A stretch of 20,724 nucleotides of DNA from contig JAYZAY010000007.1 of assembly GCA_036339465.1 (NCBI GenBank), positions 1 through 20,724 of the forward strand, read 5' to 3'. This stretch comes from Myxococcota bacterium. Its GTDB lineage: Bacteria; Myxococcota; XYA12-FULL-58-9; JABJBS01. A program made the translations under genes and the position numbers. Below are positions 1,647 through 20,724 of this stretch, piece after piece. The notes below the pieces were generated by a model. The model was not told the DNA's origin and did no database searches. It saw only the letters and a list, made by a program, of their open reading frames with translations. The stretch's first letter is position 1. Each line of letters starts with the position of its first letter.

Positions 1647-2003
1647 AGCCAGGAAGATGGTGTTGATTTAATGTAAATGGTTTAGCCTAACTCTTCTTGT
1701 CTGAACGATAGCCTTGCACTTTTTTGTTTCAATGGATTTCGGATTACTGAATTTTTTATTCTTTGATCACGAAGTTCGCGCCTATGTGAGAAACCTCACG
1801 TTCTGATTCGAGAATATAATTATAGGGAACCGTTTTGAGAAAAATAACAACCCAATGCATCCTCCAACCTATATGGACTCTTGAACCTAGACAGTGTTTC
1901 AGGGGGAACAAGGTTACTTGTTTTACTCGCTTTAGCGCTAGCGCGCTTGGGGTTGAGTTTCCTCGGAACGACTTGATCTTAATATTTATACGGAGGATTT
2001 ATA

Positions 2004-2447
2004 ATGCAAACACCAACGTTTACAACTAGAAATATTCAAACCTGTGCATCATCGCTCGTGGCACCTTCAAGCGTGAAACAAGATCCGGCCAAGACAGAGG
2101 CACCAGAATTTTCAACTCGCGACATAGGCACCTGTGCTTCATCGATGGTCGCACCTTCAAACACCAAAGATTCATTCACTCGCAGTGAACAGGAACCCTC
2201 GTTCACGACCAAAAACATTCAAAACTGTGCGTCCTCTATGAACAGCGTGAGCAATGCTAGCGCTGTTTTCGGCAAAGACGTACAGCACAAAGACGTACAG
2301 CACAAAGACGTACAGGCCAAAAACGTACAGCACAAAGACGTACAGCACAAAGACGTACAGGCCGAAGAGGAAGTATTCAAAAAAGCTCACTCCTCCAAAT
2401 TCAAGCGGCTAATGAGTCAGTTTTCCGGATTTTTTGGCCGGCGTTAA
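2004..2447 (+). CDS. Putative multi-core RiPP precursor / radical SAM substrate protein
   Basis: 147 aa with RBS GGAGG (1992-1996) 7 nt before the ATG. Three repeats of PxF[TS]T[RK][ND]Ix[TN]CASS[LM] contain the only Cys residues (C14, C44, C75). First gene ahead of the PqqD-type RRE and two radical SAM genes. Confidence 0.8.
   Translation: MQTPTFTTRNIQTCASSLVAPSSVKQDPAKTEAPEFSTRDIGTCASSMVAPSNTKDSFTRSEQEPSFTTKNIQNCASSMNSVSNASAVFGKDVQHKDVQHKDVQAKNVQHKDVQHKDVQAEEEVFKKAHSSKFKRLMSQFSGFFGRR
2013..2252 (+). repeat. Three ~90-bp degenerate cassette repeats encoding the CASS motif
   Basis: PTFTTRNIQTCASSLVAPS / PEFSTRDIGTCASSMVAPS / PSFTTKNIQNCASSMNSVS, period 30-31 aa. 2041-2070 and 2131-2160 match at 26 of 30 nt. 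Confidence 0.9.
2274..2363 (+). repeat. In-frame 15-bp tandem repeat x6 (KDVQH/KDVQA)
   Basis: Unit AAAGACGTACAGCAC, arranged as two 45-bp blocks (H-H-A): 2274-2318 and 2319-2363, which differ at one base. Confidence 0.97.
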
Positions 2448-2462
2448 TTCATAGCTTTGAGG

Positions 2463-2495
2463 AGGGTTAGATTTTAAGATCTAGCCCTTTCCTTT
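2463..2495 (+). terminator. Stem-loop between the precursor and maturase genes (leaky terminator or mRNA stabiliser)
   Basis: AGGGTTAGAT (2463-2472), loop TTTAAG, ATCTAGCCCT (2479-2488). 10-bp stem with one G-U pair, followed by an imperfect U-tract TTCCTTT. Confidence 0.55.
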
Positions 2496-2513
2496 AACAT
2501 TGCGGGAGAAACC

Positions 2514-3056
2514 ATGCGGATCCCTAAATTACATCCAGACCTCAAATTACGGCCTCACGAGGCAATCGCCTATGACCGTAGGCGCTCTCAAATTTTTGAA
2601 TTCAATTCGACCGGTGAGGCCATTTTACGATTGGTCGATGGCCAAGCCGATGAAGCCACCATCGCAGCGAGCCTCGCCAAACAAGAGCAAGAAGATCCAG
2701 CCAGTTGCCTAGAGATCTGTCGGCATTTCCTAGAGCAATGCGCGGCCGCGGATCTTATCGCGTGGTCACAAGCGACCCCACCCGCAAACTCAACCAAAGT
2801 ACCGATGCTAAAACGCCGGTTTCGCATTCGAAAAGATGAGCCAATTGGGTACTGCGGCAGTCGTTCGCAAATTTTCCATTTCAATTCGACGGCTTACCAA
2901 ATATTGCTCGCGGTCAATGGGGAGCGAAATATTCGGGCAATTGCGATGCGATTGGCCAAAGGAAATTCTGCCCATGCCACTGACAAACTCCAAGAGTGTC
3001 TCATTTTTCTCCACAAGTGTGAACAACAAGACCTTATTGAATGGAGATGTTCATGA
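2514..3056 (+). CDS. Standalone tandem PqqD-family protein (two RiPP recognition elements)
   Basis: 180 aa made of two similar ~85-aa halves: RSQIFEFNSTGEAILRLVDG..IAASLAK..FLEQC...DLIAW and RSQIFHFNSTAYQILLAVNG..IAMRLAK..FLHKC...DLIEW. Each fits the PqqD pattern (LNxTg..Iw.l.DG...i...l...v..fl..l...gli). RBS GGGAG at 2504-2508. Confidence 0.9.
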   Translation: MRIPKLHPDLKLRPHEAIAYDRRRSQIFEFNSTGEAILRLVDGQADEATIAASLAKQEQEDPASCLEICRHFLEQCAAADLIAWSQATPPANSTKVPMLKRRFRIRKDEPIGYCGSRSQIFHFNSTAYQILLAVNGERNIRAIAMRLAKGNSAHATDKLQECLIFLHKCEQQDLIEWRCS

Positions 3057-3997
3057 ATAAGATAAACGCGCCATTTTTTGCAGTTTGGTACATGACTCGC
3101 CGATGCAACCTTGCTTGCAAACACTGCTTTATTGAGGTGATGCCGACAAATACCAAGCCCAAGGAATTATCAACCGATGAAGGCAAAGAGTTGATTGACC
3201 GTCTCGCTGATGCCGACGTCTACCAATTGGCCTTTGCCGGTGGCGAGCCCCTTGTGCGGCCTGACCTCTTGGAATTGGCTCGTTATGCACGAGATGCCGG
3301 CATGACTGTTCAGTTGGCGACGAACGGCCTTGGTATTGTTCCAGAACGCGTTAAGGAGCTTTTGGGGGCTGGCTTTCGCTGTGTTCAGATTAGTCTCGAT
3401 GGCGCGACGCCATCAACCCATGACCGGTTACGAGGTTCTGGGCACTTTGAGACAACAATCGCGAGCATTCGTCACGCAACCGAAGGTGGTTTACCGGTGG
3501 TGCTTGCGATTGCTGTTCATCGGGGTAATCTCCATGAGGTAGATTTGATGATAAAACTCGCCCAAACGGAGAAGGCGATTATCCTAAAACTGCAACCCGT
3601 TTGGACACAGTTTAACCTAGGAGGTAACTCTTCTGCTTTAGAGCTGGCCGAAATCCAAGCGTTGGTGCCCAAGGTAGAAACGTTGGCGACGAGCGCTGGT
3701 ATCAAACTATCGTTACCTCGCTACACCCAAATTGTTGCCGAAGCGGGGGCAGAGCGCACCTGCTTGAGTGATTTGCGCGTTGCGACCATTTCTTCTACCG
3801 GTAGGCTTGGCATCTGTGATTTCGCTCCTGAACTGGCTTCAGGCGATGTGTTGAGGGATGCGTTTTTGCCATTGTGGAAGCGGGTCGTGCAAAACCACCA
3901 ACGCAATCAGCGATGTGGCTGTACACCGTTTTTAGAACGTCTAGACGAAACCGATTCTTCTAATTCCATTCAACTTTCTGCCGGAGCGAGACTATGA
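3053..3997 (+). CDS. Radical SAM enzyme, PqqE/MftC-like, with truncated (Twitch-like) auxiliary domain
   Basis: CNLACKHC, GGEP, TNG and ISLDG motifs. The C-terminus has C-x12-G-x4-C and then only CGC. Start moved from 3041 to 3053 because of the ATGA overlap with the upstream stop and GGAG at 3043-3046. Confidence 0.93.
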   Translation: MNKINAPFFAVWYMTRRCNLACKHCFIEVMPTNTKPKELSTDEGKELIDRLADADVYQLAFAGGEPLVRPDLLELARYARDAGMTVQLATNGLGIVPERVKELLGAGFRCVQISLDGATPSTHDRLRGSGHFETTIASIRHATEGGLPVVLAIAVHRGNLHEVDLMIKLAQTEKAIILKLQPVWTQFNLGGNSSALELAEIQALVPKVETLATSAGIKLSLPRYTQIVAEAGAERTCLSDLRVATISSTGRLGICDFAPELASGDVLRDAFLPLWKRVVQNHQRNQRCGCTPFLERLDETDSSNSIQLSAGARL

Positions 3998-5160
3998 CGA
4001 ATATGACCCAGTCTTGGAAGCACAGTGCGCCGTGGTCAGTGACCTGGTACATCACCAAACGTTGTAATCTTTTATGCAAGCACTGCTTTGTTTACGAAGA
4101 AGGCGAGATCCCAAAACGGTCCGAGCATGAATTGTCTTTCGAAGATGCTTGTAAAGTGGTGGACCAACTCGCTGAGGCAGGTGTGTTCAGTATAGCCTTC
4201 GGAGGCGGCGAGGTATTCACCCTCTCTTGGTTTTGTAAACTCGTGGAACACTGCAGTACGCGCGGGGTCGAGGTCTTTTTGTCCACCAATGGCGCTCTAC
4301 TCACCGATGAAAAGGCCGCGCGGCTCCGCAAGGCCGGGGTTCAAGTGGTGCAATTAAGCCTTGATGGCGCGACCGCGCAAACCCATGATGCCATCCGAGG
4401 TAAGGGGAATTTTGCTAAAGTGCTGCAAGCGGCTGAACGTTTGCATCGCCACGGAATCATTCCTCAATTTGCATTTACGCTGATGCGACAAAACCAGGGT
4501 GAAGTTCATCGTTTACTCGAGCTCTGCCTTGAAAAGAAAATACCGTTGTTCAAACTTCAATTATTTATTCCCAGCGGACGAGCCGACGAGGAGGCCGAAT
4601 TTGCTTTGGAACCGGAGAAGTTTCAAGCTTTGGTTGAAGATATTCGTGCCTTTGAAGAGGCCCAAGAAGGAAGGTTTCGAGTTGATTACCCCTGCTTCAT
4701 GGGACACATTGGCGATAAAGCAACACTTAATTGGCAACCAAAAAATCCCGCAACCCAATTGAGCTGCGGCGCAGGAACTACCCGAGCAGTTATTTTTGAG
4801 AATGGCGGCCTGGGTAATTGTGAGTTTATGCGCAGCGACCAAATTGGCGATTTGCGAAACGATTCGTTTATGCAGCTTTGGAATAGTGATGCTCCCGCCA
4901 TGGAGCGTTGGCGACGATTGGATTTAGTGGGTGGAAAATGCGGTAGCTGTGGCTATCAAGCTGAATGTGGGATGGGATGCCGGGCCAATGCGTATTTTGC
5001 CGGTGGTGACTTTTTTGGCGACGATCCCGCATGCATCGCGGAGGCTCCGAAAGGCGTGACTCATCCGCATTTAATCAGTCCAAAAGCAGCGCCCCGTAAT
5101 CACCGATTGGCACCACCGTCTCGCAATTCTGAATTGGTTCAGATCGGAGTACCCCGCTAA
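3994..5160 (+). CDS. Radical SAM/SPASM peptide maturase, PqqE/MftC-like
   Basis: CNLLCKHC, GGGE, STNG and LSLDG motifs. Complete 7-Cys SPASM: C-x12-G-x4-C ... CGSC-x5-C-x3-C ... DPAC. ATGA overlap with the preceding gene. Confidence 0.95.
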   Translation: MTNMTQSWKHSAPWSVTWYITKRCNLLCKHCFVYEEGEIPKRSEHELSFEDACKVVDQLAEAGVFSIAFGGGEVFTLSWFCKLVEHCSTRGVEVFLSTNGALLTDEKAARLRKAGVQVVQLSLDGATAQTHDAIRGKGNFAKVLQAAERLHRHGIIPQFAFTLMRQNQGEVHRLLELCLEKKIPLFKLQLFIPSGRADEEAEFALEPEKFQALVEDIRAFEEAQEGRFRVDYPCFMGHIGDKATLNWQPKNPATQLSCGAGTTRAVIFENGGLGNCEFMRSDQIGDLRNDSFMQLWNSDAPAMERWRRLDLVGGKCGSCGYQAECGMGCRANAYFAGGDFFGDDPACIAEAPKGVTHPHLISPKAAPRNHRLAPPSRNSELVQIGVPR

Positions 5161-5161
5161 A

Positions 5162-5725
5162 ATGAGTATTTCACCGTCTTCCAAAATCCTAAATCGCGTT
5201 CAATTGCAACCAGAGGATGCTCCTACCCTCTTCAAGCTGATAGAACAAAACCGGGCCCATCTTTCTCCGTGGCTTCCCTGGGTGGATAGCACCCAAGCAG
5301 TTGGCCACAGTCTGGCCTTTATTGAGGCTAGCCTAAATGCCGCAACAACTGGCACCGCTTTACGTTTTGGGATCTTGGTCAATAACGAACTCGCTGGGAT
5401 GATTGGCCTCGAATCTCTTAATGCACCACCGAGAACCGCCCAGATTGGCTATTGGCTTGCCGCCCAAGAGCAAGGTCAGGGGATTATTAGAAGGATTCTC
5501 CCCGAGATTATAGAGCACGGATTCGAAACACTCGACCTCACGCGGGTGGAGATTAGGGTCTGTCCGAATAACCAGAGATCGCGCGCGATTCCACTCGCTT
5601 TAGGCTTTTGCCTCCAACAAGTGTTGCCTGCCGGCGAAACGAGTGGGGGCGTTGATTATGACCAAGAGCAATTCATTCTAAACAAAGCGGATTGGGCGCT
5701 CAAAATTCGGGAACCAACTCCATGA
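5162..5725 (+). CDS. GNAT N-acetyltransferase, RimJ/RimL family
   Basis: RimL-type signatures LIEQNRAHLSPWLPWV, AQIGYWL, QGQGI (acetyl-CoA loop) and NQRSRAIPLALGF. Starts 1 nt after the SPASM gene stop. Confidence 0.92.
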   Translation: MSISPSSKILNRVQLQPEDAPTLFKLIEQNRAHLSPWLPWVDSTQAVGHSLAFIEASLNAATTGTALRFGILVNNELAGMIGLESLNAPPRTAQIGYWLAAQEQGQGIIRRILPEIIEHGFETLDLTRVEIRVCPNNQRSRAIPLALGFCLQQVLPAGETSGGVDYDQEQFILNKADWALKIREPTP

Positions 5726-7146
5726 CGAGTTTGGTCCAAACTGCGTTGGAGCAGCACCGCGCTAGCTGTCATTTCCTTGACCGCCCCGCGAAAGCACCCC
5801 CGTTGGCAGAGTGGCCCCGGGGCGAGCGCCATGAGCTTTGTTTCCAAGGAGCACCCGCCATCCCCTATGGCCCCCAAGGCAGCCCCGTTCAAAAAACAAT
5901 GGTTGCCCCGCAGTCTACCACCGTTCCCATGGACTGGAATCACCTCACCCAATGGCTTGACCTTTCCCTAGGTGTCACTGCAACAGCCGGCCCTCCGAAC
6001 GACCCATATCCACTTCGGTCACATCCCTCTAGCGGTAACCTTCATCCTGTCGAGGCATATTTAATCATTCCTGGTGGGCATCCCCAACCGGCTGGGGTTT
6101 ATCATTTTCAAGGGATTGCACTGCAATTAACCAAACGGACCCAGTCCATAGAGTTGCCACCGGGACCAATCCTGCTCGGATTATCGCTTCTTCCAAAGCG
6201 CCAAGCCTGGCGTTACGGGGACCGCGGTTATCGCTACAGCTTATTGGACCTCGGCCATGCCATTGGTGCGCTGGCCCATGGTGCCTGCTCTTGGGGATGG
6301 CAACTCCATCCGGTGCAGCCAATCACCGACGACACCCTGCACCGTGCCTTAGGCTCCCATGGAACTCCAGGGATAGCACTAAGACTCTCCCAGCGGACTG
6401 AAAACGAAAGCGACAACGAACAAGGGATTGAATTATTGGAGCGACTCGCCCAACTCGGACCTCAACAATGGGTTGGGATACCTGAGCCGAGAACCCAAGA
6501 CGACTTCGAGTGGCCATTCTTGTCCGAGCAAATCCGAAGCACGAAGCGGCACTCGCGACCAACCGCTCGCCCCTTGATTAAAGTCCCAAGGCATTGGGTC
6601 GGAAATCAGGAGTGTCGCCAAACGATGCGTAAGCGCCGAAGCGCGGTCTCTTTCGATGCTCATTCACCACTTGCCACCAACCAGATGAAAGCCCTCTTGA
6701 CAGTCTGCGGCGAAGTGCTCCCGGGATCCCTTAAACTCCAGCTATTGATACATCGAGTAGAGGGATATACCCCAGGAATTTATCGTTATTCAACAACCGG
6801 TCCCCTCGCCCCAAACCACGCTCCCGAGCTCTTAGAACCAATCGAACAAAACCAACTGCGAAACATGACCGGTTGTTTCGCCGCGAGACAAGAAATTGCA
6901 ATCCGCTCAGCTCTCAGCATAATAATCCACGCTCCTCTCCAACAGACCCTAGAAGAAAACGGCTCGGCCCACTATCGAGAGCTACTCTTAGACACCGGTA
7001 TTCTGGGCTACAGCTTCTACCTCACGGCCCAAGCCTATGGGTTTGGCGTCCGGGGCATTGGTGCATTTTACGATTCACGCTTCCCCGATCTACTCGGAGC
7101 CCATGACCATCAACCGCTCTACCTCATGTCATTCGGGAATTCGTAG
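5722..7146 (+). CDS. SagB/ThcOx-like FMN-dependent dehydrogenase with two nitroreductase-fold domains
   Basis: Domain 1: LRSHPSSGNLHPVEAY and WRYGDRGYRYSLLDLGHA. Domain 2: RKRRSAVSFD, IHRVEGYTPGIY and YRELLLDTG..GYSFYLTA...G.G..GIGAFYD. Start at 5722 preferred over 5692 because of the ATGA overlap with the GNAT stop. Confidence 0.88.
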   Translation: MTSLVQTALEQHRASCHFLDRPAKAPPLAEWPRGERHELCFQGAPAIPYGPQGSPVQKTMVAPQSTTVPMDWNHLTQWLDLSLGVTATAGPPNDPYPLRSHPSSGNLHPVEAYLIIPGGHPQPAGVYHFQGIALQLTKRTQSIELPPGPILLGLSLLPKRQAWRYGDRGYRYSLLDLGHAIGALAHGACSWGWQLHPVQPITDDTLHRALGSHGTPGIALRLSQRTENESDNEQGIELLERLAQLGPQQWVGIPEPRTQDDFEWPFLSEQIRSTKRHSRPTARPLIKVPRHWVGNQECRQTMRKRRSAVSFDAHSPLATNQMKALLTVCGEVLPGSLKLQLLIHRVEGYTPGIYRYSTTGPLAPNHAPELLEPIEQNQLRNMTGCFAARQEIAIRSALSIIIHAPLQQTLEENGSAHYRELLLDTGILGYSFYLTAQAYGFGVRGIGAFYDSRFPDLLGAHDHQPLYLMSFGNS

Positions 7147-7440: not shown

Positions 7441-8046
7441 TCATACTCCGAGAAGACATCCAAGCTCTTTGACGGAATCCACCACCGGCGCCCATTTACG
7501 TAGTCGCTCCACCGAATGATGCCCCCAGCTAACGCCAATAGCCTTAACACCCGCGTTATGAGCCATTTCCAGGTCGTAGGTGGTGTCACCGACCATCACT
7601 AGGTCGTCGGTCCCTGAAGCTTGCATGATGGCGTGTAACAAATCGGGATTTGGTTTGGGGCGGGGCACGGAATTGCCTCCAAGAACAATCTCAAACCGAT
7701 CCGCCAAGCCAAATTGGTTCACAACCCGCTCAGCCCCCCGCTGACTCTTGCCGGTGGCCACCGCCGCGCGAAAAGGCCGGGCTAATAGGTCGGCTATGCC
7801 ATCAAAAAGCCGCTCCTGATGGGCCGCCTTCACGTAGGCTTGGGAATAAACTTCCGCCAATGCCTCGGGATCCTGGTCGGGTCCGAGTCTTTGCATCGTT
7901 TCCACCAATGACAAACCGATAAGCTCGAGGATGGCCTCAGGAGGCGGACACGGCACGCCCACACTGGCCCAAGTAACTTGATGGGCTTCCAGTAAAGGAC
8001 GGGTCGAATCGACTACCGTGCCATCTAAATCGAATACTGCCAGCAT
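7441..8046 (-). CDS. HAD-IA family hydrolase (phosphoglycolate phosphatase-like)
   Basis: Motif I FDLDGTVVDS, motif II ATGK, motif III KPNP, motif IV MVGDTTYDLEMA..AG...IGVSWG. Confidence 0.93.
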   Translation of the reverse strand: MLAVFDLDGTVVDSTRPLLEAHQVTWASVGVPCPPPEAILELIGLSLVETMQRLGPDQDPEALAEVYSQAYVKAAHQERLFDGIADLLARPFRAAVATGKSQRGAERVVNQFGLADRFEIVLGGNSVPRPKPNPDLLHAIMQASGTDDLVMVGDTTYDLEMAHNAGVKAIGVSWGHHSVERLRKWAPVVDSVKELGCLLGV

Positions 8047-8350
8047 GAACGCCCCTTACCCTTTCAACCTCCACCAAATCAAGGCCCTCGGTTCTGAGAA
8101 AAGGCCTTTAAAATAGCCAAGAGAAGCTGTGTCGCCATGGAGTAATTGTTCCCCAAGCAGGAGACATCCGCACTTTTAATCTGGATTTTCGCACCCAAAG
8201 TGGGAACCGTTGAACGCGGCTCCCACCTTATACCAACCCCCATCCCCATGCCCCGATTTCTCTCTACTCGACAATTCGGTGGTCTTGTTATTGTCGTATC
8301 ACCGTGCTAACTCCGCCAGCCCCGCAAAACCAGAAGAAGAGGAAAATAAC

Positions 8351-9070
8351 ATGTTTACCCGAACATCTTTACTATTAGCGGCCCTATGCTCTTTAGCCTG
8401 TGGTCCTGAAACCACTGAACCCAGCATTGTCAACGGTGCCAACACCGATGCCCAAGCGATTCGTGATATAGCCGGTGGTGGTCGCATTAAAGGTCGAATC
8501 AAAGTAGGACAAGCCCAAGAAGGCCGCACTCGAACTCAGGACTTCTGGCGCCTAACACTCTCACAAACCACCGACCTATGGATCGAACTCAATGCCTTTG
8601 ACGACGGAGATACCTATCTTGAACTCTATAAGAAAAACGGACCTCGTTGGCGAAAACTAGCCACCAACGATGACTGTGACGATTACACCTACGACGCCTG
8701 CCTAGGAAAGCAACTGCGGCGCGGCAGATATCTTCTTAAAGCCACCAGTTATGAATGGGTCAAAGAAGGTTCAAACAGTCTCACCACCTATGAATTGGCA
8801 GTCTACGGCAACAGCGAGGAGGAAGAGGAATTCGAAACTGGGCCTTGTGGCACTCCCGGTGGCATCACCTGTGGACCGAGAAAATATTGCCACTTTACGA
8901 TTCGCGACCAGTGCGGAAGGACAAACCGCGGTGGTAAGTGCCAAGAAAAACGTCAGGCTTGCACCCGTGATTATCGCCCCGTATGTGGATGCAACGGCAG
9001 AACTTACTCCAACAAATGTATGGCCAATAGCCAGGGAGCTTCGGTTGAATCAAACGGTCGCTGCCGATAA
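8351..9070 (+). CDS. Lipoprotein with a PPC-like (pre-peptidase C-terminal) domain and a C-terminal Kazal-type protease inhibitor domain
   Basis: Start at 8351 follows GAGGA and gives signal MFTRTSLLLAALCSLAC (lipobox-like SLAC). PPC-like segment D.W.LTL...DTYLELY...LATNDD...L..GRYLL. Kazal segment CTRDYRPVCGCNGRTYSNKC...G.SV...GRC. Confidence 0.85.
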   Translation: MFTRTSLLLAALCSLACGPETTEPSIVNGANTDAQAIRDIAGGGRIKGRIKVGQAQEGRTRTQDFWRLTLSQTTDLWIELNAFDDGDTYLELYKKNGPRWRKLATNDDCDDYTYDACLGKQLRRGRYLLKATSYEWVKEGSNSLTTYELAVYGNSEEEEEFETGPCGTPGGITCGPRKYCHFTIRDQCGRTNRGGKCQEKRQACTRDYRPVCGCNGRTYSNKCMANSQGASVESNGRCR

Positions 9071-9602: not shown

Positions 9603-12065
9603 ATGTCTCGCTATTTTCTCGTTCTCGTTTTACTCTTAATTTTCTTGTCCGGATGTTTCGCTCTAAATAATGCATCAAGTGAATGCGATGATTGCAAATC
9701 AGCGACCACCTGCCATGAGAACAAGTGCAGGAATATCTGTTCAGAGAAGGAGAAATGCGCCACCAATGAAGCATGCATCAACAGCGTATGCCTGCCCTAT
9801 TCGGAAGCATGCCAAAAAGAATCCGATTGCCTGAGTGGTTTCTTTTGTTTCGACCACGCGTGCATCTCCAAATACTCCAATGGCAATAAATGCACCGCCA
9901 ATAAAATGTGCCAAAGCGATTTTTGCATCGATGGGTTCTGCTGCTCCGCCCAATGTTCCACATGCCAGAGCTGTAATCCTGCCCTTGCCAATGCCCCGTC
10001 TGGCCAGTGCCATCCGGTTAGTGATGGAAAAGACCCACGGGACGAATGTATCAATCAAACCTCCTGTGATGGACAAGGATCATGTTGGGCCTTGGGCATC
10101 GGACAAGAGTGTCACCACGACGAGCAATGCTTTGGTGGCTCTTGTGAACCCGCCACCAGCACCTGCCAAGCCGTGGTTTGTGGGGATGGAATCATCGGTA
10201 AAGGAGAAGCGTGTGACGATGGCAATACCGACACTGATGATGAGTGCATCGAATGTAATAACTCTTTTTGTGGAGACGGCTTTCTGCATAAAACCAATGA
10301 GACATGCGATGACGGCGCACTCAATTCAGATAAATATCAACGAACCTCTCATTGTAACGCCACGTGCACGGGTTTGGCCCCCTATTGCGGCGACAACAAT
10401 ACCAACGGGCCGGAAGAGTGTGATGACGGAGATAATATAGATGATGAATTATGCGATTTTGATTGCACTCTGCCGCAATGTCTAGATGGGCACCTTAATG
10501 TCTCATTTGGCGAGTCCTGCGATGATGGAATCCAAACCGCGAGATGCAACCACGACTGTAGCCCACAAAAGTGTGGAGATTTGAAACTCAATACCGCTGC
10601 AGGCGAGCAATGCGATGACGGAGACCAAGTCGATGATTCAATATGCGATTTTGATTGCAGTTTTAGAGAATGTGGGGACAAATACACCAACACCGTCTCC
10701 GGGGAAGAGTGTGACGACGGCAATGAAAGCAATACCGACAATTGCATCGAGTGCCAAAACGCCCGGTGCGGAGACGGTTACCTGCATTGGTCCACCGAGA
10801 CATGCGATGATGGCGATGACCTCAACGCCGACGATTGGGCCCCATCCATTAGAGAGGCACATTGCGACAAAGTTTGTTCCGGAATGGCTCCCCATTGCGG
10901 CGATGGCCTCGTCAATGGGAAAGAAGAATGTGACGACGGCGACAATCTAAACGATAAACTCTGCGACTTTAACTGCACGTTTTCAAAATGTGGGGACGGT
11001 GATATCAACACCGCGGCGGGGGAAGAATGTGATGACGGAAACACTTTAGACGATGAACGCTGCGACTTTGACTGCAGCTTGAGAGAATGTGGGGACAATT
11101 ACACCAACACCGAGGCAGGGGAAGAATGTGACGACGGCAACAACAACCTCAACGACAACTGCCCGAGTGGAGACGCTGGAACCTGTCAGCCAGCGTTCTG
11201 TGGGGACGGCTACATTTACAACCAAGAACAAGGGCAAGAGCTTTGTGATGAGGGATCGCTCAACGGCACCATACACAGTGCAGACGTCAGTTGTTCATCG
11301 GTCTGCACGCCCTATGTGACTGTGGGCGATCTCACCTTTTCATGGTCCGATGATCGAACAGCTACAAACCAAATACTCGATGCAGCAGAGCTCCAGCTAA
11401 CGCCGCTCATGGGTGGTGAATTTCAGAGAACTGTTGATTTTCTAAAGCGCAAAGACATTCGAATCATCGTTAAAGGGAACCTAAGCATTCGCGGCGCGCC
11501 ATCGGCACGCATCCCGATTCTAAGCCAAATTGCGAAGGTCACCGGTTATCTCGAAACAGGAGTTTACCAAAACGCTATGCTATTTATCCCGCGCCATAAT
11601 GCTATGGAAGAGGACAAACTCTGCGAATTGGACCTCTCCAATTTGCGGTATGTCGGTGCCTGGCTCAAGTTAGGGGGAAACCAAAATGTTTGGGAAAGCG
11701 GGATTAACGGTATTGCTTCAGTCACTTATGATTTCAAAAACCCGAACCTTAAAGTTGTTTACTTAAACAAATTGGAGCAGGTGGTTGCCGACCTAAACGC
11801 TGGAAAAATGGCGGCACTGAAGAGATTCCAGCTTTCAAGCACACTAGGGGACAGCGAATTACAAGCTTGTAGTATCGACTTTCAAATTAGGCCCTACTGT
11901 ATTTCGGGCTTAGGAGAAAGCGTTGCCGTCGCAAACAATCCTGATGAAAGAAGTAACTGTGACAAGGAACCACTCGATGGCCACAATAGACTGGATGCCT
12001 GCCCTGAAATTTTGCCGAGCTTATTTGGCCCCGAGCGAACCAATATTGATGATCTTTGTCCCTAA
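9603..12065 (+). CDS. Cys-rich repeat lipoprotein (myxobacterial DUF4215-type repeats) with an L-domain/LRR-like C-terminus
   Basis: Lipobox LSGC after a hydrophobic signal, N-terminal Cys-rich knots, and 11 CGD/CLD...E.CD[DE]G repeats. The C-terminal LDLSNLRYVGAWLKL / YLNKLEQVVADL segments resemble receptor-L-like repeats. AGGAG at 9587-9591. Confidence 0.85.
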   Translation: MSRYFLVLVLLLIFLSGCFALNNASSECDDCKSATTCHENKCRNICSEKEKCATNEACINSVCLPYSEACQKESDCLSGFFCFDHACISKYSNGNKCTANKMCQSDFCIDGFCCSAQCSTCQSCNPALANAPSGQCHPVSDGKDPRDECINQTSCDGQGSCWALGIGQECHHDEQCFGGSCEPATSTCQAVVCGDGIIGKGEACDDGNTDTDDECIECNNSFCGDGFLHKTNETCDDGALNSDKYQRTSHCNATCTGLAPYCGDNNTNGPEECDDGDNIDDELCDFDCTLPQCLDGHLNVSFGESCDDGIQTARCNHDCSPQKCGDLKLNTAAGEQCDDGDQVDDSICDFDCSFRECGDKYTNTVSGEECDDGNESNTDNCIECQNARCGDGYLHWSTETCDDGDDLNADDWAPSIREAHCDKVCSGMAPHCGDGLVNGKEECDDGDNLNDKLCDFNCTFSKCGDGDINTAAGEECDDGNTLDDERCDFDCSLRECGDNYTNTEAGEECDDGNNNLNDNCPSGDAGTCQPAFCGDGYIYNQEQGQELCDEGSLNGTIHSADVSCSSVCTPYVTVGDLTFSWSDDRTATNQILDAAELQLTPLMGGEFQRTVDFLKRKDIRIIVKGNLSIRGAPSARIPILSQIAKVTGYLETGVYQNAMLFIPRHNAMEEDKLCELDLSNLRYVGAWLKLGGNQNVWESGINGIASVTYDFKNPNLKVVYLNKLEQVVADLNAGKMAALKRFQLSSTLGDSELQACSIDFQIRPYCISGLGESVAVANNPDERSNCDKEPLDGHNRLDACPEILPSLFGPERTNIDDLCP

Positions 12066-12305: not shown

Positions 12306-13166
12306 TCAGGACCGCTGTTTAAGAAACTTCGAAACAAACACCGCCAAACCCCAAAGAAACACTCCCACCATGGTTTGTGACGGGCCCACCGGAAAATCAT
12401 AGAGAAAAGCTAAAACATAGCCGAAAAATCCACATCCCCCCCCTACCCCGGCGGCTAGAATCATCGCTCGTGGAATATTGGAAGCCAAACCAATCGCGGC
12501 CATGGCCGGAAAAACACTGAACGCAAAGGAAGGCAATGCGCCCAATACCCTCGTGCATACGGAAACGGAGAGAGCAATGGTCAACATGAGGATGAACTTA
12601 AGCGCCTGGACAGGCATGCCCCGCACCTCAGACGTGCTCTCATCGTAAGTGACTTCCACAAATCCACGCCACCACCAAAGATGTAATCCCAAAATAAGAA
12701 CGCCAAAAATCAGGACCGTTTGAAAATCTTCGGGTAGCACCGCCACCGAACTCCCAAAGAGTAGGGTTTGAACATCATGCAGTTCTTCGACGATTTTGGA
12801 CGCCACCATCAAGGTACCTGCTGATCCCACCAAAAAGATGAGGCCCAGCATGCTGTCGCGGTGGGTTCGGTCACTTTCTCGATTGCTCCAAATCAGGCCC
12901 AAACAGGAAATGCTCAATATTGAGGCCCCCATGGTGGGTGAGGCAACAATCGCTGCGACCCCAAAATAGGCTTGGGCCGCATAGGCGAGGGTCACCCCAA
13001 ACCCCGCTACTTGAGAAAGGGCCGCCGATAAAAACACCATTCTTCCAAGCACGATATAAACCCCCAGGAATCCAAGCAAGATCCCTGCAAGCGTACCCGT
13101 CAGCACCGAGTCCTGAAAAAGGGGCCAAGCGTCCCAAAAGGCATTCATATCAGTGGTCGCAGTCAT
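12306..13166 (-). CDS. Metal (Zn/Mn/Fe) ABC transporter permease, ZnuB/ABC-3 family
   Basis: GFLGVYIVLGRMVFLSAALSQVAGFG, LLFGS and DE..S.V.GMPV motifs with multiple TM helices. Start placed at 13166 (GAGGAG at 13171-13176, overlapping the ATPase end) rather than 13241; 13148 is an alternative. Confidence 0.9.
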   Translation of the reverse strand: MTATTDMNAFWDAWPLFQDSVLTGTLAGILLGFLGVYIVLGRMVFLSAALSQVAGFGVTLAYAAQAYFGVAAIVASPTMGASILSISCLGLIWSNRESDRTHRDSMLGLIFLVGSAGTLMVASKIVEELHDVQTLLFGSSVAVLPEDFQTVLIFGVLILGLHLWWWRGFVEVTYDESTSEVRGMPVQALKFILMLTIALSVSVCTRVLGALPSFAFSVFPAMAAIGLASNIPRAMILAAGVGGGCGFFGYVLAFLYDFPVGPSQTMVGVFLWGLAVFVSKFLKQRS

Positions 13167-13926
13167 GACACTCCTCAGGATCGGGTATCGGGCCAAAGCG
13201 ATCTTCCACCACACTTCGGAGCAACCGACCAAAGTGTTCATGGACCTCGTGGTGAACTGCCACGTCGCGAATATCTCCTTCGATGATGAGCTGGTGCTCT
13301 CGATCTAAGAGCAACGCATGGGTGGCCACAGAAGCCATCCCCATAAGATTGTGGCTGACCAACACCACCGAAAGATTCCGTTCCTTTCGAAGTCGGTTTA
13401 GGAGTTCTAACATCTCCATTTCCGTTTGGTTGTCCATGGCGCTGGTGGGTTCATCCAGCACCAAAAGATTGGGATTACATACCAAAGCCCGGGCCATGAG
13501 AACGCGCTGCTTTTGACCTTCGCTCAACTCGGCAAGCTGTTGCCGAGCGATGTCATGGATGCGGGTTTGTTCCATGGCCAAATCGATGGTTTCCTTTTCA
13601 CGATAGGTATGAAGGGGATCAACAAACGACCAACCCCTAGCAGCGCCCCCCCGAACCACGTCAATGGCCCGGGCAGGCATGGTCAAATCTAGACTCATTC
13701 GCTGAGGGACGTAGCCCACGCGGAGTTCGCTCTGCTCAACGATCTCGCCACCTAGCTTTGGTAGCAACCCCAACATCGTTTTAAGCAGGGTGGATTTTCC
13801 ACTACCATTGGAACCCGCAATGCCCCACAATTGCCCAAACTCGATTTGCGCGGAAATCGAAGGCAAAATCGGCCGGCCCATATAGCCAACCTCCAAATCT
13901 TGTAAGTGCAAAAGAGTGTTTGTCAT
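13150..13926 (-). CDS. Metal ABC transporter ATP-binding protein, ZnuC-like
   Basis: Walker A GSNGSGKS, Q-loop GYVPQ, signature LSEGQKQR, Walker B LLVLDEP and H-loop VSH. Confidence 0.95.
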   Translation of the reverse strand: MTNTLLHLQDLEVGYMGRPILPSISAQIEFGQLWGIAGSNGSGKSTLLKTMLGLLPKLGGEIVEQSELRVGYVPQRMSLDLTMPARAIDVVRGGAARGWSFVDPLHTYREKETIDLAMEQTRIHDIARQQLAELSEGQKQRVLMARALVCNPNLLVLDEPTSAMDNQTEMEMLELLNRLRKERNLSVVLVSHNLMGMASVATHALLLDREHQLIIEGDIRDVAVHHEVHEHFGRLLRSVVEDRFGPIPDPEECHDCDH

Positions 13927-14319: not shown

Positions 14320-17300
14320 TTAGTTTACAAAATCACACCCCAACGTGCACTCGGCGACAAGACCATTACTGAATTCGCCCACACAGGCTCCGCACATATT
14401 GTAGTCCCGCCCATTCACCGTCAAAAAGCACCCCGAAGTGGCGGTGCGGTCGCAATGGTTTTCGCATTCGCTGGTGGTCGACCCATCGAACTTTAAATAG
14501 CACGCATTGCGGCAAGACAATTGCTGATTGCACGACACATCGGTCTCACTATTTTGAAAACCTGAATCGATGCAGTAGTTCAAACAAGCATCAAATTTGT
14601 TTTGACGAACTTCCACCTCGGGGTCGTAAAAACAATCGTAGGTGAAACCATTTCCTATTTGGGGATCAAGCGGCAACATTTCTTGCCCATTTAAGAGAAT
14701 AGGCGGTGTTATCTGCGAATCTTCTGGGATTGAGTCCAACGGGGTTACCTTATATTTGTACGGCCAAACCGGGCTATACCCATTCACAAAAGGCGTCACA
14801 TCATCGATTTCCACAGGCGGAGTCGGAACCGGCAAAAGATAAATAGTGGACTCCCGTCCCTCGGGGGTTTCAATCATCACATTCTCCACTTTACGCCCGG
14901 GGATCTTGTAGTATTGAGGACGGTTGGCTCGAACCTCCTCGCCTTCTGTCCCCGAGTCCACCACGACTATGCGAGACGAAAAGAATCGAGCATCCTCTTT
15001 GCACATTTGATTAAACCCAATCGCGTAGCTTGTATCGGGATAGAGGTAAGGAGCAACCTCAAATTCAAGCCCTATCTCGTAGCGAGATCCGCCAGGAACC
15101 GAGGCAATCCGAATAGCATTATAAGCGAAACTACCTGGATTGGTTAAGGCAGGGCTATCTTCCCAAACGCCGTTGGTTCCGGTAGAAGCATCTAAATCGA
15201 GTTGAACTTTCAGGCTGTCTGGTGTGCAATTAGGGCCGCTGTTGGTGGTGCACCACTTTTCAATATTATCAAAAGGTTGCTGCTCTCGGTCGTAATAATG
15301 ATGTCCTAGCTTAGGCCAATCCCAAGTCACAATATGAGCGGCGTAATTGCCAAAAAGGTCGCCTAAATCTTGATTTTCTTGCGCCAAATAAAAGCGCATT
15401 TTTTGCAAAGTACTGCCTGGCGTCTCATCGGTATCCGCTGCAAGACGCCCTATCAAATACGGCTTTGCTGCGTAATGACTCACAAAGGTCCACCAAACAT
15501 TTAGGCCATAGAAACGAGCCCCTAAAGCGAGGTCGCCGATATTACGGCCATGGTAAGGCTGCGGGTATTTCAGAACATGCATCTCATTTAGAGAATCCCA
15601 TCGACCCTCCATTGCCAATGGCACCATAGGAAAATAGGTAAGCCCAGAATTCATCCATGATTTTGCACCCGCAAAAAGGTAGTACGCCATGATTTCCGCG
15701 AAGGACTCCCCTGAGATGCCTCGAATGTAGTGATTCAATTTATTATAGGTGCGCATAATCGTGAAATGAGCGGCATGGCCATGCTCATGAACCGGTCGCT
15801 GCCAGCCCGAGTAAAGATCCACATCATACGAATCCCACCGAGTCCATCCCCCGCTTTCCGCTATCTTTCGATGGTCGGCCGACGTTGGCTCGTTTGGAAA
15901 ATCTTCGGGCAACCAATTGAAGCCCTGAAATAAATCTGTGACGTATTTACAAGGGTTATTGTAGTTACGGGGCTCGCCACAGGTTGCTGGATCAGCACAG
16001 AGATTGCTTTCGGGCGTATAGTTTCGGTAGGTGTTCTTCGAATTCTCAGGAGCAAGAGCCCGAGTATCCACATAGGGGATGAAATCCATCTCAAAAAACA
16101 TCTGCTCATGCCATCTATCCCAAAAACCCACCATGCGCCTGAGGTTATCGAGGAAGCTCGGGTCCGTGGGAGGAAACGTATCACCTTCAGGGATCCACAT
16201 GGTGACGTAGACCCCACTGGAAAAACTTTGAGTCGCGTGGTTGGGCACAATAGCGTAGCCCCCCATTCCCCAGGAATAACGCCGATTGGATTTTGGGTAC
16301 CCGTCAGCAATAGCGTAATCACCGGCGTTGCTGCAGCGTTTGCCTATCTCGTCGATTTCAGAAGGCGTGAGCTTGCGGTTATTGCCATAGAGCCGAACGT
16401 CCCAAATCTTGGCATTGGCGGCGCCCACTTGCATCACCTCTAATGGAGTCGCGCTTGATGCGACGTGATTGGCGACCGTACTCATTCGCAAACCCGGAAT
16501 GGTTGTCGCGATGCTGCCTAAATAAACCGTGGCGTCTTCATTATCGGATAAAACCAGAGTAAATTGATTGCATTGATAATTTTTGACCGTGGCGGAAAAA
16601 GCGGTTTCCCCTCCAATGCTGTGAGTCACATCGCCGACCACCAAGGAGAGAGCGTCGTTGTTCAACTGCGCCCGGATGCCCAGACCCTCAAAGAGCGTGC
16701 CGCTCATGGTAGGAGGATCCATGTCCCAAACATGCATGAATTTAAACGCGAACGTAAGCCCTTGGGATTGGGAAATGCGGTCTATGTCCAGCGAGGTTTT
16801 GGCCGTCACTGAAAGGGTCTTGTTGGTAAAATCGGTTCGGCTCGTAAAATTCCCCAGAGATTCATTTTGGATCTCGCTCATGGCAATACTTGCGGTAAAT
16901 TGGCTGGTGGGGTTCAGGCCGCGGGTGGAGGTGCGGGGCGCCAAATTCGACCAAGTCACGCTTAGGGGCAAGAAAATCTCTAAGTCGTTATCGTAGGCAC
17001 TCTCGCCATGAAAGTTGTGCGCCTCACATTTGCACTCCCCCGAAGCTAAACAGCGATGCACCGGATCAGCCCGGCAAACCCCTTTGTTTTTGATGGTTCG
17101 CATCCAACTGCACCCCTTCGTGCTTACACACAAATGATGCTTCGAAATGTCTTTACAAGACGACACCGGAAACTGCCCGGGAATATAAAGCGGCTTGGCA
17201 TATTCAAGGAAATAGGGCGAGCTGCTGACGGTTTCGCAACTTCCGTCGTCACCTGTGGCATCGAGGTTATAATTCAAAGCCCTTGGATTCGTGCAGCCCA

Positions 17301-17994
17301 AAACCGTGTTGCAGGCTGTCCAATCACTCCATTGCCCGTTAACACATACTCGACTCTGATTACCATTGTTGTTGTCGCCACAGGCTTGTTGTGCAGTCGC
17401 ACCGGTGGTGCAAACATCGGGATCTGCGCAATCACCAAAAGCTCCCCAAGCCCCATCGGTGCAGGTGCGAATTTGAGATCCGTTTTCATTGAGGCCACAG
17501 GCTTGTTGTGCAGTCGCACCGGTGGTGCAAACATCGGGATCTGCGCAATCACCAAAAGCTCCCCAAGCCCCATCGGTGCAGGTGCGAATTTGAGAGCCGT
17601 TTTCATTGAGGCCACAAGATTGCTGCTCTTGGGCCCCCGTCTCGCAGTCATTTTCGTTTGCTGGTGCGCAGTCGCTGTCATTGGAATTGGTACATCCCGG
17701 TGCGCAACAATCATCCCCAAAAACACAAGCAGTAATCGCTGTGTGAGTGCAACGCACCGAGCATTCAGACGCAGATCCACTCAATACATCGGAAGTACAA
17801 ATATTGTTATCGTTGCATATCGTTGGGCAATTGCCATCGCATATTTCAGCGGCCTCGATGATGCCGTTACCGCATTGGTTTTCATCAATGGGTTCCGAGA
17901 CAGAAGGGTCACAACCGATACCAACCAACAACAAGGTCAGGATTGTGCTAACAAAGGTTTGAGAAATCGTTCGAAAAAAAAGCGCCCCTAGCAT
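14320..17994 (-). CDS. Large secreted lipoprotein: Cys-rich repeats, LamG-like domain and putative HExxH zinc metallopeptidase domain
   Basis: Signal ending in GIGC. Start 17994 follows AAGGGAG (18009 is an alternative). Contains a CGNG..EAAEICDG repeat, 39-aa Cys repeats, a GCTNPRALNYNLDATGDDGSC repeat, LamG-like IWDVRLY..RKLTPSEI, HEHGH-x22-ESFAE and a Cys-rich C-terminus. Confidence 0.8.
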   Translation of the reverse strand: MLGALFFRTISQTFVSTILTLLLVGIGCDPSVSEPIDENQCGNGIIEAAEICDGNCPTICNDNNICTSDVLSGSASECSVRCTHTAITACVFGDDCCAPGCTNSNDSDCAPANENDCETGAQEQQSCGLNENGSQIRTCTDGAWGAFGDCADPDVCTTGATAQQACGLNENGSQIRTCTDGAWGAFGDCADPDVCTTGATAQQACGDNNNGNQSRVCVNGQWSDWTACNTVLGCTNPRALNYNLDATGDDGSCETVSSSPYFLEYAKPLYIPGQFPVSSCKDISKHHLCVSTKGCSWMRTIKNKGVCRADPVHRCLASGECKCEAHNFHGESAYDNDLEIFLPLSVTWSNLAPRTSTRGLNPTSQFTASIAMSEIQNESLGNFTSRTDFTNKTLSVTAKTSLDIDRISQSQGLTFAFKFMHVWDMDPPTMSGTLFEGLGIRAQLNNDALSLVVGDVTHSIGGETAFSATVKNYQCNQFTLVLSDNEDATVYLGSIATTIPGLRMSTVANHVASSATPLEVMQVGAANAKIWDVRLYGNNRKLTPSEIDEIGKRCSNAGDYAIADGYPKSNRRYSWGMGGYAIVPNHATQSFSSGVYVTMWIPEGDTFPPTDPSFLDNLRRMVGFWDRWHEQMFFEMDFIPYVDTRALAPENSKNTYRNYTPESNLCADPATCGEPRNYNNPCKYVTDLFQGFNWLPEDFPNEPTSADHRKIAESGGWTRWDSYDVDLYSGWQRPVHEHGHAAHFTIMRTYNKLNHYIRGISGESFAEIMAYYLFAGAKSWMNSGLTYFPMVPLAMEGRWDSLNEMHVLKYPQPYHGRNIGDLALGARFYGLNVWWTFVSHYAAKPYLIGRLAADTDETPGSTLQKMRFYLAQENQDLGDLFGNYAAHIVTWDWPKLGHHYYDREQQPFDNIEKWCTTNSGPNCTPDSLKVQLDLDASTGTNGVWEDSPALTNPGSFAYNAIRIASVPGGSRYEIGLEFEVAPYLYPDTSYAIGFNQMCKEDARFFSSRIVVVDSGTEGEEVRANRPQYYKIPGRKVENVMIETPEGRESTIYLLPVPTPPVEIDDVTPFVNGYSPVWPYKYKVTPLDSIPEDSQITPPILLNGQEMLPLDPQIGNGFTYDCFYDPEVEVRQNKFDACLNYCIDSGFQNSETDVSCNQQLSCRNACYLKFDGSTTSECENHCDRTATSGCFLTVNGRDYNMCGACVGEFSNGLVAECTLGCDFVN
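17377..17616. repeat. Near-perfect 117-bp in-frame tandem duplication
   Basis: Copies start at 17377 and 17494 with one mismatch (17479 vs 17596). The unit encodes a 39-aa module CGLNENGSQIRTCTDGAWGAFGDCADPDVCTTGATAQQA. Confidence 0.97.
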
Positions 17995-18620
17995 TGCGAC
18001 TCCCTTCATGAAGTTGGGGCAAGATAAGTTAGCGCGGCGTTAAAAGCAATGCGTGAGAACCGAGGGGGCCCGTGGGTTCTTTCGCAAACCCGGGCGTTTT
18101 TTCAAGCTTAGCTCCCCCAGTCACACCGCCTCCACCGAGGGTTTACCTATTTAACATTCTCTGCCCGTAGATACATCAGTTCGCGGGAAAACCCAGTCAT
18201 ACTACCAGTTCACCGCGTGTATCCCCTACCGCCTGCTTAATCTCTTTTCTTTCTGGTTGGTGAATCATAAATTTTCGATAGATTATTGTGACGTGTGCCC
18301 TGAGGCTTCTAGAGTGTGCTCGTAACCAAGACTTCCCGCAGGTGTCACCGGCTGAGCCTAAAGCTGAGCACACGGCGACTGAACTTCCCCGAAAACAAGC
18401 TGGCCAATCATACGCATACTGTTTTGCGACACCGTGAGTATATTGGCAAGAGCTTGGACCTGAATGCCATAAGATGTGTCGGCAATTCTTAATTCGCTCT
18501 AAGAACAAAGGAAGTAGGCAAGGCAGGGGATTTAAAAAAAGTTAGAACAGTCTTGCCTTTGCCACTGGCTGCGACATTGTTTTTTTGCTGCGCCTTATTT
18601 CTCCGACAATCAAAAATCCC

Positions 18621-20132: not shown

Positions 20133-20724
20133 CTGCCTTGGGTCAAACATGCAAGTCGCCTACTCGGATAGGGACGGTAAATTTTCGGACGTGGAAGATA
20201 CCGGTTGTTCAGATAGTCCATTCGCTTCCAAAGTAGCCTCGCTTTTTGGCTGCGACGGGTAAGAGCCCGTCGCCATGCCAAAGCAACCTGATGTCGGAAT
20301 TGATTGAGGGCGGGGTAGTTCATAGGGATAGCGTGGTAGTTGTACCACCCCCGTAGAACCTTACCCAACCACCCACCTACCTTAGGACAGGATCATGGAG
20401 ACGCCTTCGCAGCTCAAGCTTGAGCCTCCGAAGTCGACTTCGAAGACGCTTGGCATCAGTCTTACGCGACGCCGTAAACCATCCCTTTCTCGTTTTGCCG
20501 CAGATATGCGTAAATCCGAGAAAGGTGAAAGTTTTGGGCTTCCGTTCGCCACGCTTCTTTCGATTGGCCGCCGCAAAGCGACCGAACTCCAAAAGCTTGG
20601 TCTTGTCCGGATGAAGTTCCAGGTTAAAACGGCGAAGTCTTTCCGCCAACTCTCCCCAAAACTTCAGAGCATCTGACTTATGCTGAAATCCCATAATGCA
20701 GTCATCTGCCCACCGCACGATAAT
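20057..20724 (-). mobile_element. Group II intron, 3' portion (resembles bacterial class E; truncated by the window edge)
   Basis: RT domains 5-7 and domain X are followed by a DV/DVI sequence ending ...CCCTACCGCGAC at 20057. No endonuclease domain follows domain X. Confidence 0.93.

Follow-up and report, generated by a model that had tools for sequence, protein, structure and literature searches.

The window analysed here, a 20,724-nt stretch of contig JAYZAY010000007.1 from a Myxococcota bacterium (GenBank assembly GCA_036339465.1), contains a six-gene operon on the + strand that probably represents a rare, leader-free, multi-core peptide pathway built around radical S-adenosylmethionine (SAM) enzymes. 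The gene heading the operon (positions 2004-2447) very likely encodes its genuine precursor, a 147-aa peptide in which each of three cassettes would combine a recognition segment with an I-x-x-C-A-S-S core, the Cys being the likely modification site. Behind it lie genes for a protein with two RiPP recognition elements (RREs; RiPP, ribosomally made and post-translationally modified peptide), two radical SAM enzymes, a GNAT acetyltransferase and a SagB-type flavoprotein. The family was previously uncatalogued. Pfam and NCBIfam scans of the 147-aa precursor gave no family match, and neither this cassette, nor the C-A-S-S motif, nor tandem-PqqD proteins were described in the open-access PMC and bioRxiv literature (subscription journals being outside this scope). 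The precursor gene and its parts are the following:

1992-1996, + strand: strong Shine-Dalgarno sequence GGAGG, read in the DNA, with the ATG 7 nt further on
2004-2447, + strand: precursor gene (P0001), 147 aa (translation and homologues)
2013-2069, + strand: cassette 1, residues 4-22, with Cys14 (translation, alignment)
2103-2159, + strand: cassette 2, residues 34-52, with Cys44 (translation, alignment)
2196-2252, + strand: cassette 3, residues 65-83, with Cys75 (translation, alignment)
2273-2360, + strand: 15-nt tandem repeat, 5.9 copies with 91% matches, encoding a run of the pentapeptide K-D-V-Q-H (repeat scan)
2364-2444, + strand: basic/amphipathic C-terminal tail, residues 121-147 (27 residues; translation)

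The start codon assignment is unambiguous. Seven open codons precede the ATG in the precursor frame of the window, none of them a start codon, and only three do so at the two homologous loci, found in genomes G112 (locus L002) and G088 (locus L098). At all three loci for which DNA was available, the peptide begins M-x-x-P, residue 4 is the first of cassette 1 and the frame is closed by a stop 3-7 codons upstream, which leaves no space for an N-terminal leader. The first-pass annotation of this DNA had proposed such a leaderless layout of three cassettes from residue 4 (span 2013-2252, residues 4-83), and both the translation and the three loci bore it out.

The precursor possesses three Cys in total, one per cassette. 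Numbered from this Cys, the three copies in the window are identical at P(-10), F(-8), T(-6), I(-3) and C-A-S-S, so that alignment confirmed the invariant P, F, T, I and CASS reported at first pass. Pairs of window cassettes share 10-14 of 19 residues, 4-9 of which are written with differing codons, and their nucleotide identity is 46-72%; this combination argues for selection at the protein level rather than for a recent DNA duplication. The cassettes were also kept in genomes of very unlike composition.

The comparison was extended to 11 cassettes from four precursors (three each from the window, G112 and G088, and two from the database protein P0040), the near-duplicate P0038 being excluded. 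All 11 had the same residues at P(-10), I(-3), C, A(+1), S(+2) and S(+3). Position -8 was F in nine cassettes and V in two, position -5 was R, K or Q, position -1 was T in eight, and the residue after C-A-S-S was M, L, S or V, while the linkers varied in sequence and the Cys-Cys spacing ranged from 21 to 31 residues. In general form, the segment before the Cys is thus P-x-[FV]-x-x-[RKQ]-x-I. The earlier suggestion that each cassette carries its own RRE-binding site, written PxFxT[RK], survives in part: a conserved segment does precede every Cys in all homologues, but the Thr and the [RK] of that motif are not family-wide. P0040 (154 aa, from a 1.5-kb contig) has its two complete cassettes near the C-terminus, and its N-terminus (M-I-K-N-L-P-T-F-T-R) resembles a cassette start that then loses the Cys core; the long N-terminal region could be real, or else stem from a decayed cassette or from a frameshift, the contig being short.

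The C-terminal part of the window peptide is not shared. Both the pentapeptide run and the tail are missing from the other three precursors, so the enzymes do not need them. A database variant of the window peptide has two pentapeptide units instead of six, and metagenome contigs from four runs end within the 2273-2360 repeat; the difference in copy number may be a true polymorphism or an assembly collapse. The tail resembles membrane-targeting amphipathic helices such as that of MinD. The stored ESM Atlas model of the precursor had a predicted local distance difference test score (pLDDT) of 0.45 and gave no usable relatives.

The remainder of the operon comprises one intergenic element and five enzyme or partner genes:

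2460-2497, + strand: hairpin and U-rich tract between the precursor and RRE genes (minimum free energy -24.3 kcal/mol, z -2.45; equalled by 6 of 200 shuffled sequences)
2514-3056, + strand: tandem PqqD/RRE protein, 180 aa (Pfam, NCBIfam, half-versus-half alignment)
3041-3997, + strand: radical SAM enzyme 1 (rSAM1, P0003), 318 aa, CxxxCxxC at residues 22-29 (Pfam, NCBIfam, model)
3994-5160, + strand: radical SAM/SPASM enzyme 2 (rSAM2, P0004), 388 aa, CxxxCxxC at residues 24-31 (Pfam Radical_SAM and SPASM)
5162-5725, + strand: GNAT acetyltransferase, Acetyltransf_3, RimL-like (Pfam, NCBIfam)
5722-7146, + strand: SagB-family flavin mononucleotide (FMN) dehydrogenase with two nitroreductase-like halves (TIGR03605, 94.5 bits where 78.4 are required)

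The five genes behind the precursor are joined by overlaps of 16 nt, 4 nt and ATGA and by one 1-nt gap, indicating a single translationally coupled operon. The hairpin at 2460-2497 may be an attenuator that sets the ratio of precursor to enzymes; a consensus terminator scan did not flag it, and an Rfam scan of the window found no RNA family. Pfam and NCBIfam show that the precursor gene lies directly before a pair of PqqD/RRE domains and a pair of radical SAM enzymes. The first half of the RRE protein matched PF05402 with 50.9 bits (cut-off 23.4) over residues 16-82, and the second, 40% identical to the first, matched PqqD models over residues 119-175. A predicted complex of this protein with precursor residues 1-90, from a three-row alignment and without controls, scored 0.01 against a mark of 0.32, which speaks neither for binding nor against it.

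The two radical SAM enzymes are paralogues (28-33% identity), and the sequence of each starts near its CxxxCxxC motif, without a fused N-terminal RRE. In rSAM1 a Pfam scan found no SPASM match, and the C-terminal C241, C259 and C292 are invariant, and C294 nearly so, among 11 family members; this domain is, as far as the sequence goes, a truncated SPASM domain, twitch-like and with a single predicted cluster. The nearest structure to its AlphaFold model (pLDDT 84.6) was SkfB, a twitch enzyme that forms thioethers (TMq 0.73), ahead of BlsE, PqqE, MoaA and SuiB, and its top PDB sequence match was PqqE (E 1e-18). In rSAM2 the C-terminal Cys 258, 276, 316, 319, 325, 329 and 347 are invariant in three orthologues and form a full SPASM pattern, and the top PDB sequence match was SkfB (E 3.7e-17). 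The AlphaFold model of rSAM2, built from three sequences, was too poor for a fold search (pLDDT 50.3) and was set aside. Neither enzyme came close to an NCBIfam equivalog cut-off, the best being AhbD with 141 and 179 bits against 500.

For the last gene the likely start is ATG 5722, which gives the ATGA overlap with the GNAT stop, the listed open reading frame (ORF) beginning at TTG 5692; its two-half layout is like that of PDB 3eo7. YcaO (PF02624) had no match in the genome of the window (G000, 92.8% complete), in G112 (75% complete) or among the window proteins, and G088 possessed one match, on a contig other than that of the operon.

The six genes occur in identical order in the window, at G112/L002 and at G088/L098, with identities to the window proteins of 37% for the RRE protein, 49-51% for rSAM1, 60-61% for rSAM2, 32-34% for GNAT and 28-29% for SagB. 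The operon flanks differ, with a K+ channel and a HAD hydrolase in the window, and Cu-monooxygenase-like and thioredoxin/TPR proteins at L002. When 401 genomes of the window's GTDB phylum were searched in six frames, a precursor profile gave eight matches at E <= 0.01, among which the true precursors were those of G000, G112 and G088 (E <= 4e-28). A profile of the rSAM1 family at E <= 1e-45 recovered the very same three genomes of the 401. The order to which G088 belongs is represented by 20 genomes, and the peptide was present only in the two of G088's genus. The other five profile matches (G336, G290, G081, G361 and G010; E 0.0013-0.0096) had no cassette and were rejected, the one inspected being antisense to a 587-aa ORF.

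Wider searches added little to this distribution. Among species-representative genomes, a scan with rSAM2 returned one locus, L002 (61% identity). The HMMER precursor profile gave four matches at E <= 0.001 among 1,835,955,588 representative proteins, namely a near-copy of the G088 peptide, the variant of the window peptide, P0040, and the false positive P0039 (E 7.6e-06), a repeat protein of 324 aa that lacks a C-A-S-S cassette. Word-based searches recovered only a near-identical copy with the precursor and only itself with the RRE protein. For rSAM1, about ten more relatives came up with identities of 37-50% (E <= 3.4e-55), the next scores being only 1.5e-36.

At the metagenome level, a scan with the rSAM2 alignment gave 98 pattern-matching stretches and no relatives, while the rSAM1 family alignment gave 539 radical SAM relatives, 80 loci of which were kept (best identity 45%, over the SAM core only); the latter loci are generic radical SAM genes. 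Known loci aside, none of the 91 loci examined held an ORF with I-x-x-C-A-S-S or with two C-A-S-S motifs. At least half of the window's sampled words were carried by 6 of the 24 listed runs, these six being marine/seawater metagenomes from four studies, one of which may be the sample that yielded the window itself; no RNA run was among those listed. In four of the runs, one per study, the contigs were 99-100% identical to positions 1900-3100 where they covered them, and no natural variants at position -4 were found there.

From these features a sequence of events can be proposed for the pathway. The P-x-[FV]-x-x-[RKQ]-x-I segment of each cassette would serve as a recognition element bound by one half of the RRE protein, and the invariant C-A-S-S would be the reaction site. 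The two-RRE protein would hold the cassettes and present them to the RRE-less radical SAM enzymes, after which rSAM2 and/or rSAM1 would bind the Cys thiol at an auxiliary Fe-S cluster and join its sulfur to a nearby carbon. Characterised Cys-directed SPASM/twitch peptide maturases form thioethers, so a thioether, tentatively put forward on this analogy, is the likeliest modification here. Activation of the Cys thiol on the auxiliary cluster is described for NxxcB and the sactisynthases in PMC9389541. The acceptor would more probably be the invariant Ile at -3, which has the NxxC spacing, the Ala at +1 or a Ser at +2/+3 than the variable residue at -4. The SagB-type flavoprotein would then take two hydrogens from the modified cassette, its substrate being something other than a YcaO-made azoline, and the GNAT enzyme would acetylate an amine. 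Cys oxidation of the anSME type was considered and rejected, as its motif, C-x-[PA]-x-R, does not fit C-A-S-S-[MLSV].

One specific version of this chemistry is very improbable, yet would be of interest. TqqB makes a morpholine from adjacent Thr-Gln, according to PMC9389541. With the cassette docked through P-x-F...I on one RRE half, the Cys sulfur might likewise be joined to the alpha-carbon of Ala +1, giving a six-membered, thiomorpholine-type ring in the backbone that SagB would desaturate without YcaO. If true, this would be the sulfur counterpart of the TqqB morpholine and a new class of heterocycle, and an azoline-oxidase homologue would for the first time be seen to act without YcaO.

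Several observations weigh against a Cys-modifying multi-core pathway. Each chemical step is inferred from sequence, model and analogy. The top NCBIfam scores were for AhbD, NirJ2 and MftC rather than for sactisynthases, and among the neighbours by structure or sequence are enzymes of C-C bond formation, decarboxylation or epimerisation (PqqE, BlsE, SuiB, EpeE), so the fold does not single out thioether formation. A SagB-type dehydrogenase without YcaO has no known partner, and its role is unexplained. No protease or exporter gene was found in the conserved six-gene module, an uncommon situation if a multi-core peptide is to be secreted. Conservation is drawn from four precursors only, the three with DNA belonging to one GTDB phylum (two genera).

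The lack of a protease and exporter in the module in three genomes would be accommodated if the polypeptide served to build a product that stays inside the cell, be it a cofactor-like molecule cut from each I-x-x-C-A-S-S or an intact chain with three modified sites. Such a product is unlikely, although it agrees with several further observations. The best NCBIfam scores of rSAM2 include the cofactor maturases MftC (156 bits), AhbD and NirJ2, with PqqE at 101.8, and PqqE is the top PDB sequence match of rSAM1. Discrete PqqD-type chaperones are a hallmark of the pyrroloquinoline quinone (PQQ) and mycofactocin pathways, the products of both are excised from their peptides, and mycofactocin biosynthesis employs a flavin oxidoreductase after the radical SAM step. 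However, the equivalog cut-offs are missed widely (MftC 156 against 265, PqqE 102 against 381), the module contains no PqqB/PqqC or MftD/E/F-type genes, and RiPP clusters often have no protease or exporter genes of their own, these possibly sitting elsewhere.

An improbable alternative, which follows the first-pass annotation, is that a thioether closes each cassette by joining the Cys to the beta-carbon of an Asn or Asp at -4, as in a ranthipeptide reversed relative to the Cys-X3-Asp of PapB. The spacing itself was read correctly in the window (N10/C14, D40/C44, N71/C75), and both P0040 cassettes have N at -4. The literature on which the proposal drew also holds: PapB acts on Cys-X3-Asp/Glu motifs and links Cys to Asp/Glu over spacings of 0-6 residues (PMC9413430), and NxxcB forms a beta-thioether at an Asn upstream of the Cys, tolerating Ala, Gln or Asp in its place (PMC9389541), so that the identity of the acceptor may vary. 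PMC10739248, examined for wording on a reversed PapB motif, contained none of the terms.

The homologues argue against this bond as a family trait. Position -4 is N, D, N in the window and N, N in P0040, but G112 has Q, A, A there and G088 has A, G, P, despite enzymes that are 49-61% identical. Asx thus occupies -4 in only 5 of the 11 cassettes, the other six having Q, A, A, A, G and P; lack of conservation in homologues was what the first-pass annotation had itself named as counter-evidence, and [N/D]-x3-C is not supported as the functional feature. Gly has no beta-carbon, so a beta-thioether from Cys to -4 is not the common modification of the family. Position -2 is D or E in five of the six G112 and G088 cassettes, compared with Q, G, Q, G and R in those of the window and P0040. 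In the third cassette of G088, neither -4 nor -2 is Asx or Glx. Across the 11 cassettes there is no Asx or Glx at any one fixed distance from the Cys, and the strictly invariant residues lie elsewhere, at I -3 and at A, S, S +1 to +3. The [N/D]-x3-C pattern is, on the precursors compared, lineage-specific. A Cys link at -4 in the window organism alone is conceivable; NxxcB tolerates Ala, Gln or Asp for Asn.

It is scarcely credible that the ORF encodes a small repeat protein with no connection to the adjoining enzymes, their true substrate being encoded elsewhere: the precursor does have no family assignment and its role as substrate is predicted from its sequence, but it lies directly 5' of the same five enzyme genes at all three loci and nowhere else in the 401 genomes, its distribution equals that of the rSAM1 family, and its cassettes are conserved at the protein level.

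The precursor with Cys-centred cassettes, which is the preferred reading, matters in several respects. Radical SAM/SPASM enzymes that work with RRE partners have already proved to yield new peptide chemistry. Within the open-access literature covered, the features found here are undescribed in combination, namely a leaderless precursor with a recognition segment in each cassette, one two-RRE protein for two RRE-less radical SAM paralogues, and an azoline-oxidase homologue for which no YcaO was found. The C-A-S-S core, invariant over 11 cassettes, offers a compact target for mass spectrometry and mutagenesis; as the [N/D]-x3-C pattern is lineage-specific, experiments should not rest on it alone. 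If the cassettes are indeed self-contained, they would be useful for engineering leader-free substrates. These prospects are tempered by the many orphan radical SAM peptide clusters that exist and by the deduced nature of the chemistry.

The operon is flanked in the window by two genes on the other strand or unrelated to it:

282-1013, other strand or unrelated to the operon: K+ channel gene (Pfam)
7441-8046, other strand or unrelated to the operon: HAD hydrolase gene (Pfam)

Further downstream, the window encodes a 286-aa protein with a C-terminal Kazal-type protease-inhibitor domain (8210-9070, + strand) and an 820-aa protein with DUF4215/myxo_disulf_rpt cysteine-rich repeats (9603-12065, + strand), which together hint at a secretome like that of Myxococcota. 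The ATPase and permease of an AztA/AztB-like zinc ATP-binding cassette transporter (12306-13926, - strand) lie 5 kb from the operon, with no peptide link found. A 1229-aa ORF (14320-18009, - strand) had no Pfam or NCBIfam match at E <= 0.01, and a partial group II intron reverse transcriptase/maturase (20377-20724, - strand) runs off the window end. At L002 a lipoprotein-like gene (2290-3177, - strand), also present at L004/L098, is divergent from the precursor gene. The protein ends in a domain of the copper type II ascorbate-dependent monooxygenase kind, which has the same fold as the peptide-amidating enzyme. The window operon has no neighbouring counterpart of this monooxygenase-like gene, which belongs to the genus of G112 and G088.

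Among known systems, the operon resembles in its predicted gene content an RRE-dependent radical SAM RiPP pathway, in which a PqqD-type element adjoins the modifying enzymes. Membership of the PQQ or mycofactocin pathways was not indicated, PqqE scoring 101.8-117 bits against 381 and MftC 121.9-156.3 against 265, and no PqqB/C or MftD/E/F-type matches were listed among the 15 proteins scanned. With the thiazole/oxazole-modified microcins (SagB, McbC) the operon shares a last gene that passes the SagB-family model TIGR03605; unlike in these systems, the hallmark YcaO cyclodehydratase was not found in the window or in its 92.8%-complete genome.

The SynChlorMet (Scm) cassette, which was defined computationally, likewise combines two paralogous radical SAM/SPASM enzymes and PqqD-type chaperone(s) with a Cys-repeat precursor. 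It differs in its repeat (C-x-x-G against I-x-x-C-A-S-S here) and in having no place for the GNAT and SagB genes found here instead. The ScmE/ScmF models reached 92-105 bits against 400, ScmA and ScmD had no match for P0001 or P0002, and the operon has no HprK-like ScmC gene.

The sactisynthases SkfB, CteB and StsB resemble the system in the predicted twitch-like single-cluster domain of rSAM1 and in one Cys per substrate unit. Identity is about 22%, and SkfB has an N-terminal peptide-binding extension where the enzymes here start at their SAM-cluster motifs. The sactisynthase models scored below cut-off (P0004, SkfB 76.8 against 300 and StsB 100.6 against 625; P0003, StsB 97.8 against 625). 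The modelled fold of rSAM1, nearest SkfB, is therefore compatible with sactipeptide chemistry, not specific for it.

Another comparison is with the ranthipeptides PapA/PapB (freyrasin) and NxxcA/NxxcB, which also pair a radical SAM/SPASM enzyme with several repeats of a short Cys motif. The upstream acceptor of NxxC lies three residues before the Cys, the spacing of the invariant Ile here, but this position is Ile and not Asn in all 11 cassettes, unlike in the NxxC radical SAM RiPPs. Further differences are the lack of a leader, the RRE present as a separate two-domain protein, and the two paralogous radical SAM enzymes with a GNAT and a SagB dehydrogenase. Compared with the PapB type, there is no fixed distance from Cys to Asp, Glu or Asn, and the orientation is reversed relative to Cys-X3-Asp/Glu. 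No ranthipeptide or NxxC model of NCBIfam matched above its cut-off.

In the arrangement of the precursor, a parallel is offered by the cyanobactin PatE-type peptides. These differ in keeping an N-terminal leader and dedicated proteases, with YcaO/protease chemistry, yet they place a recognition sequence at each core, in the same layout as the cassettes described here.

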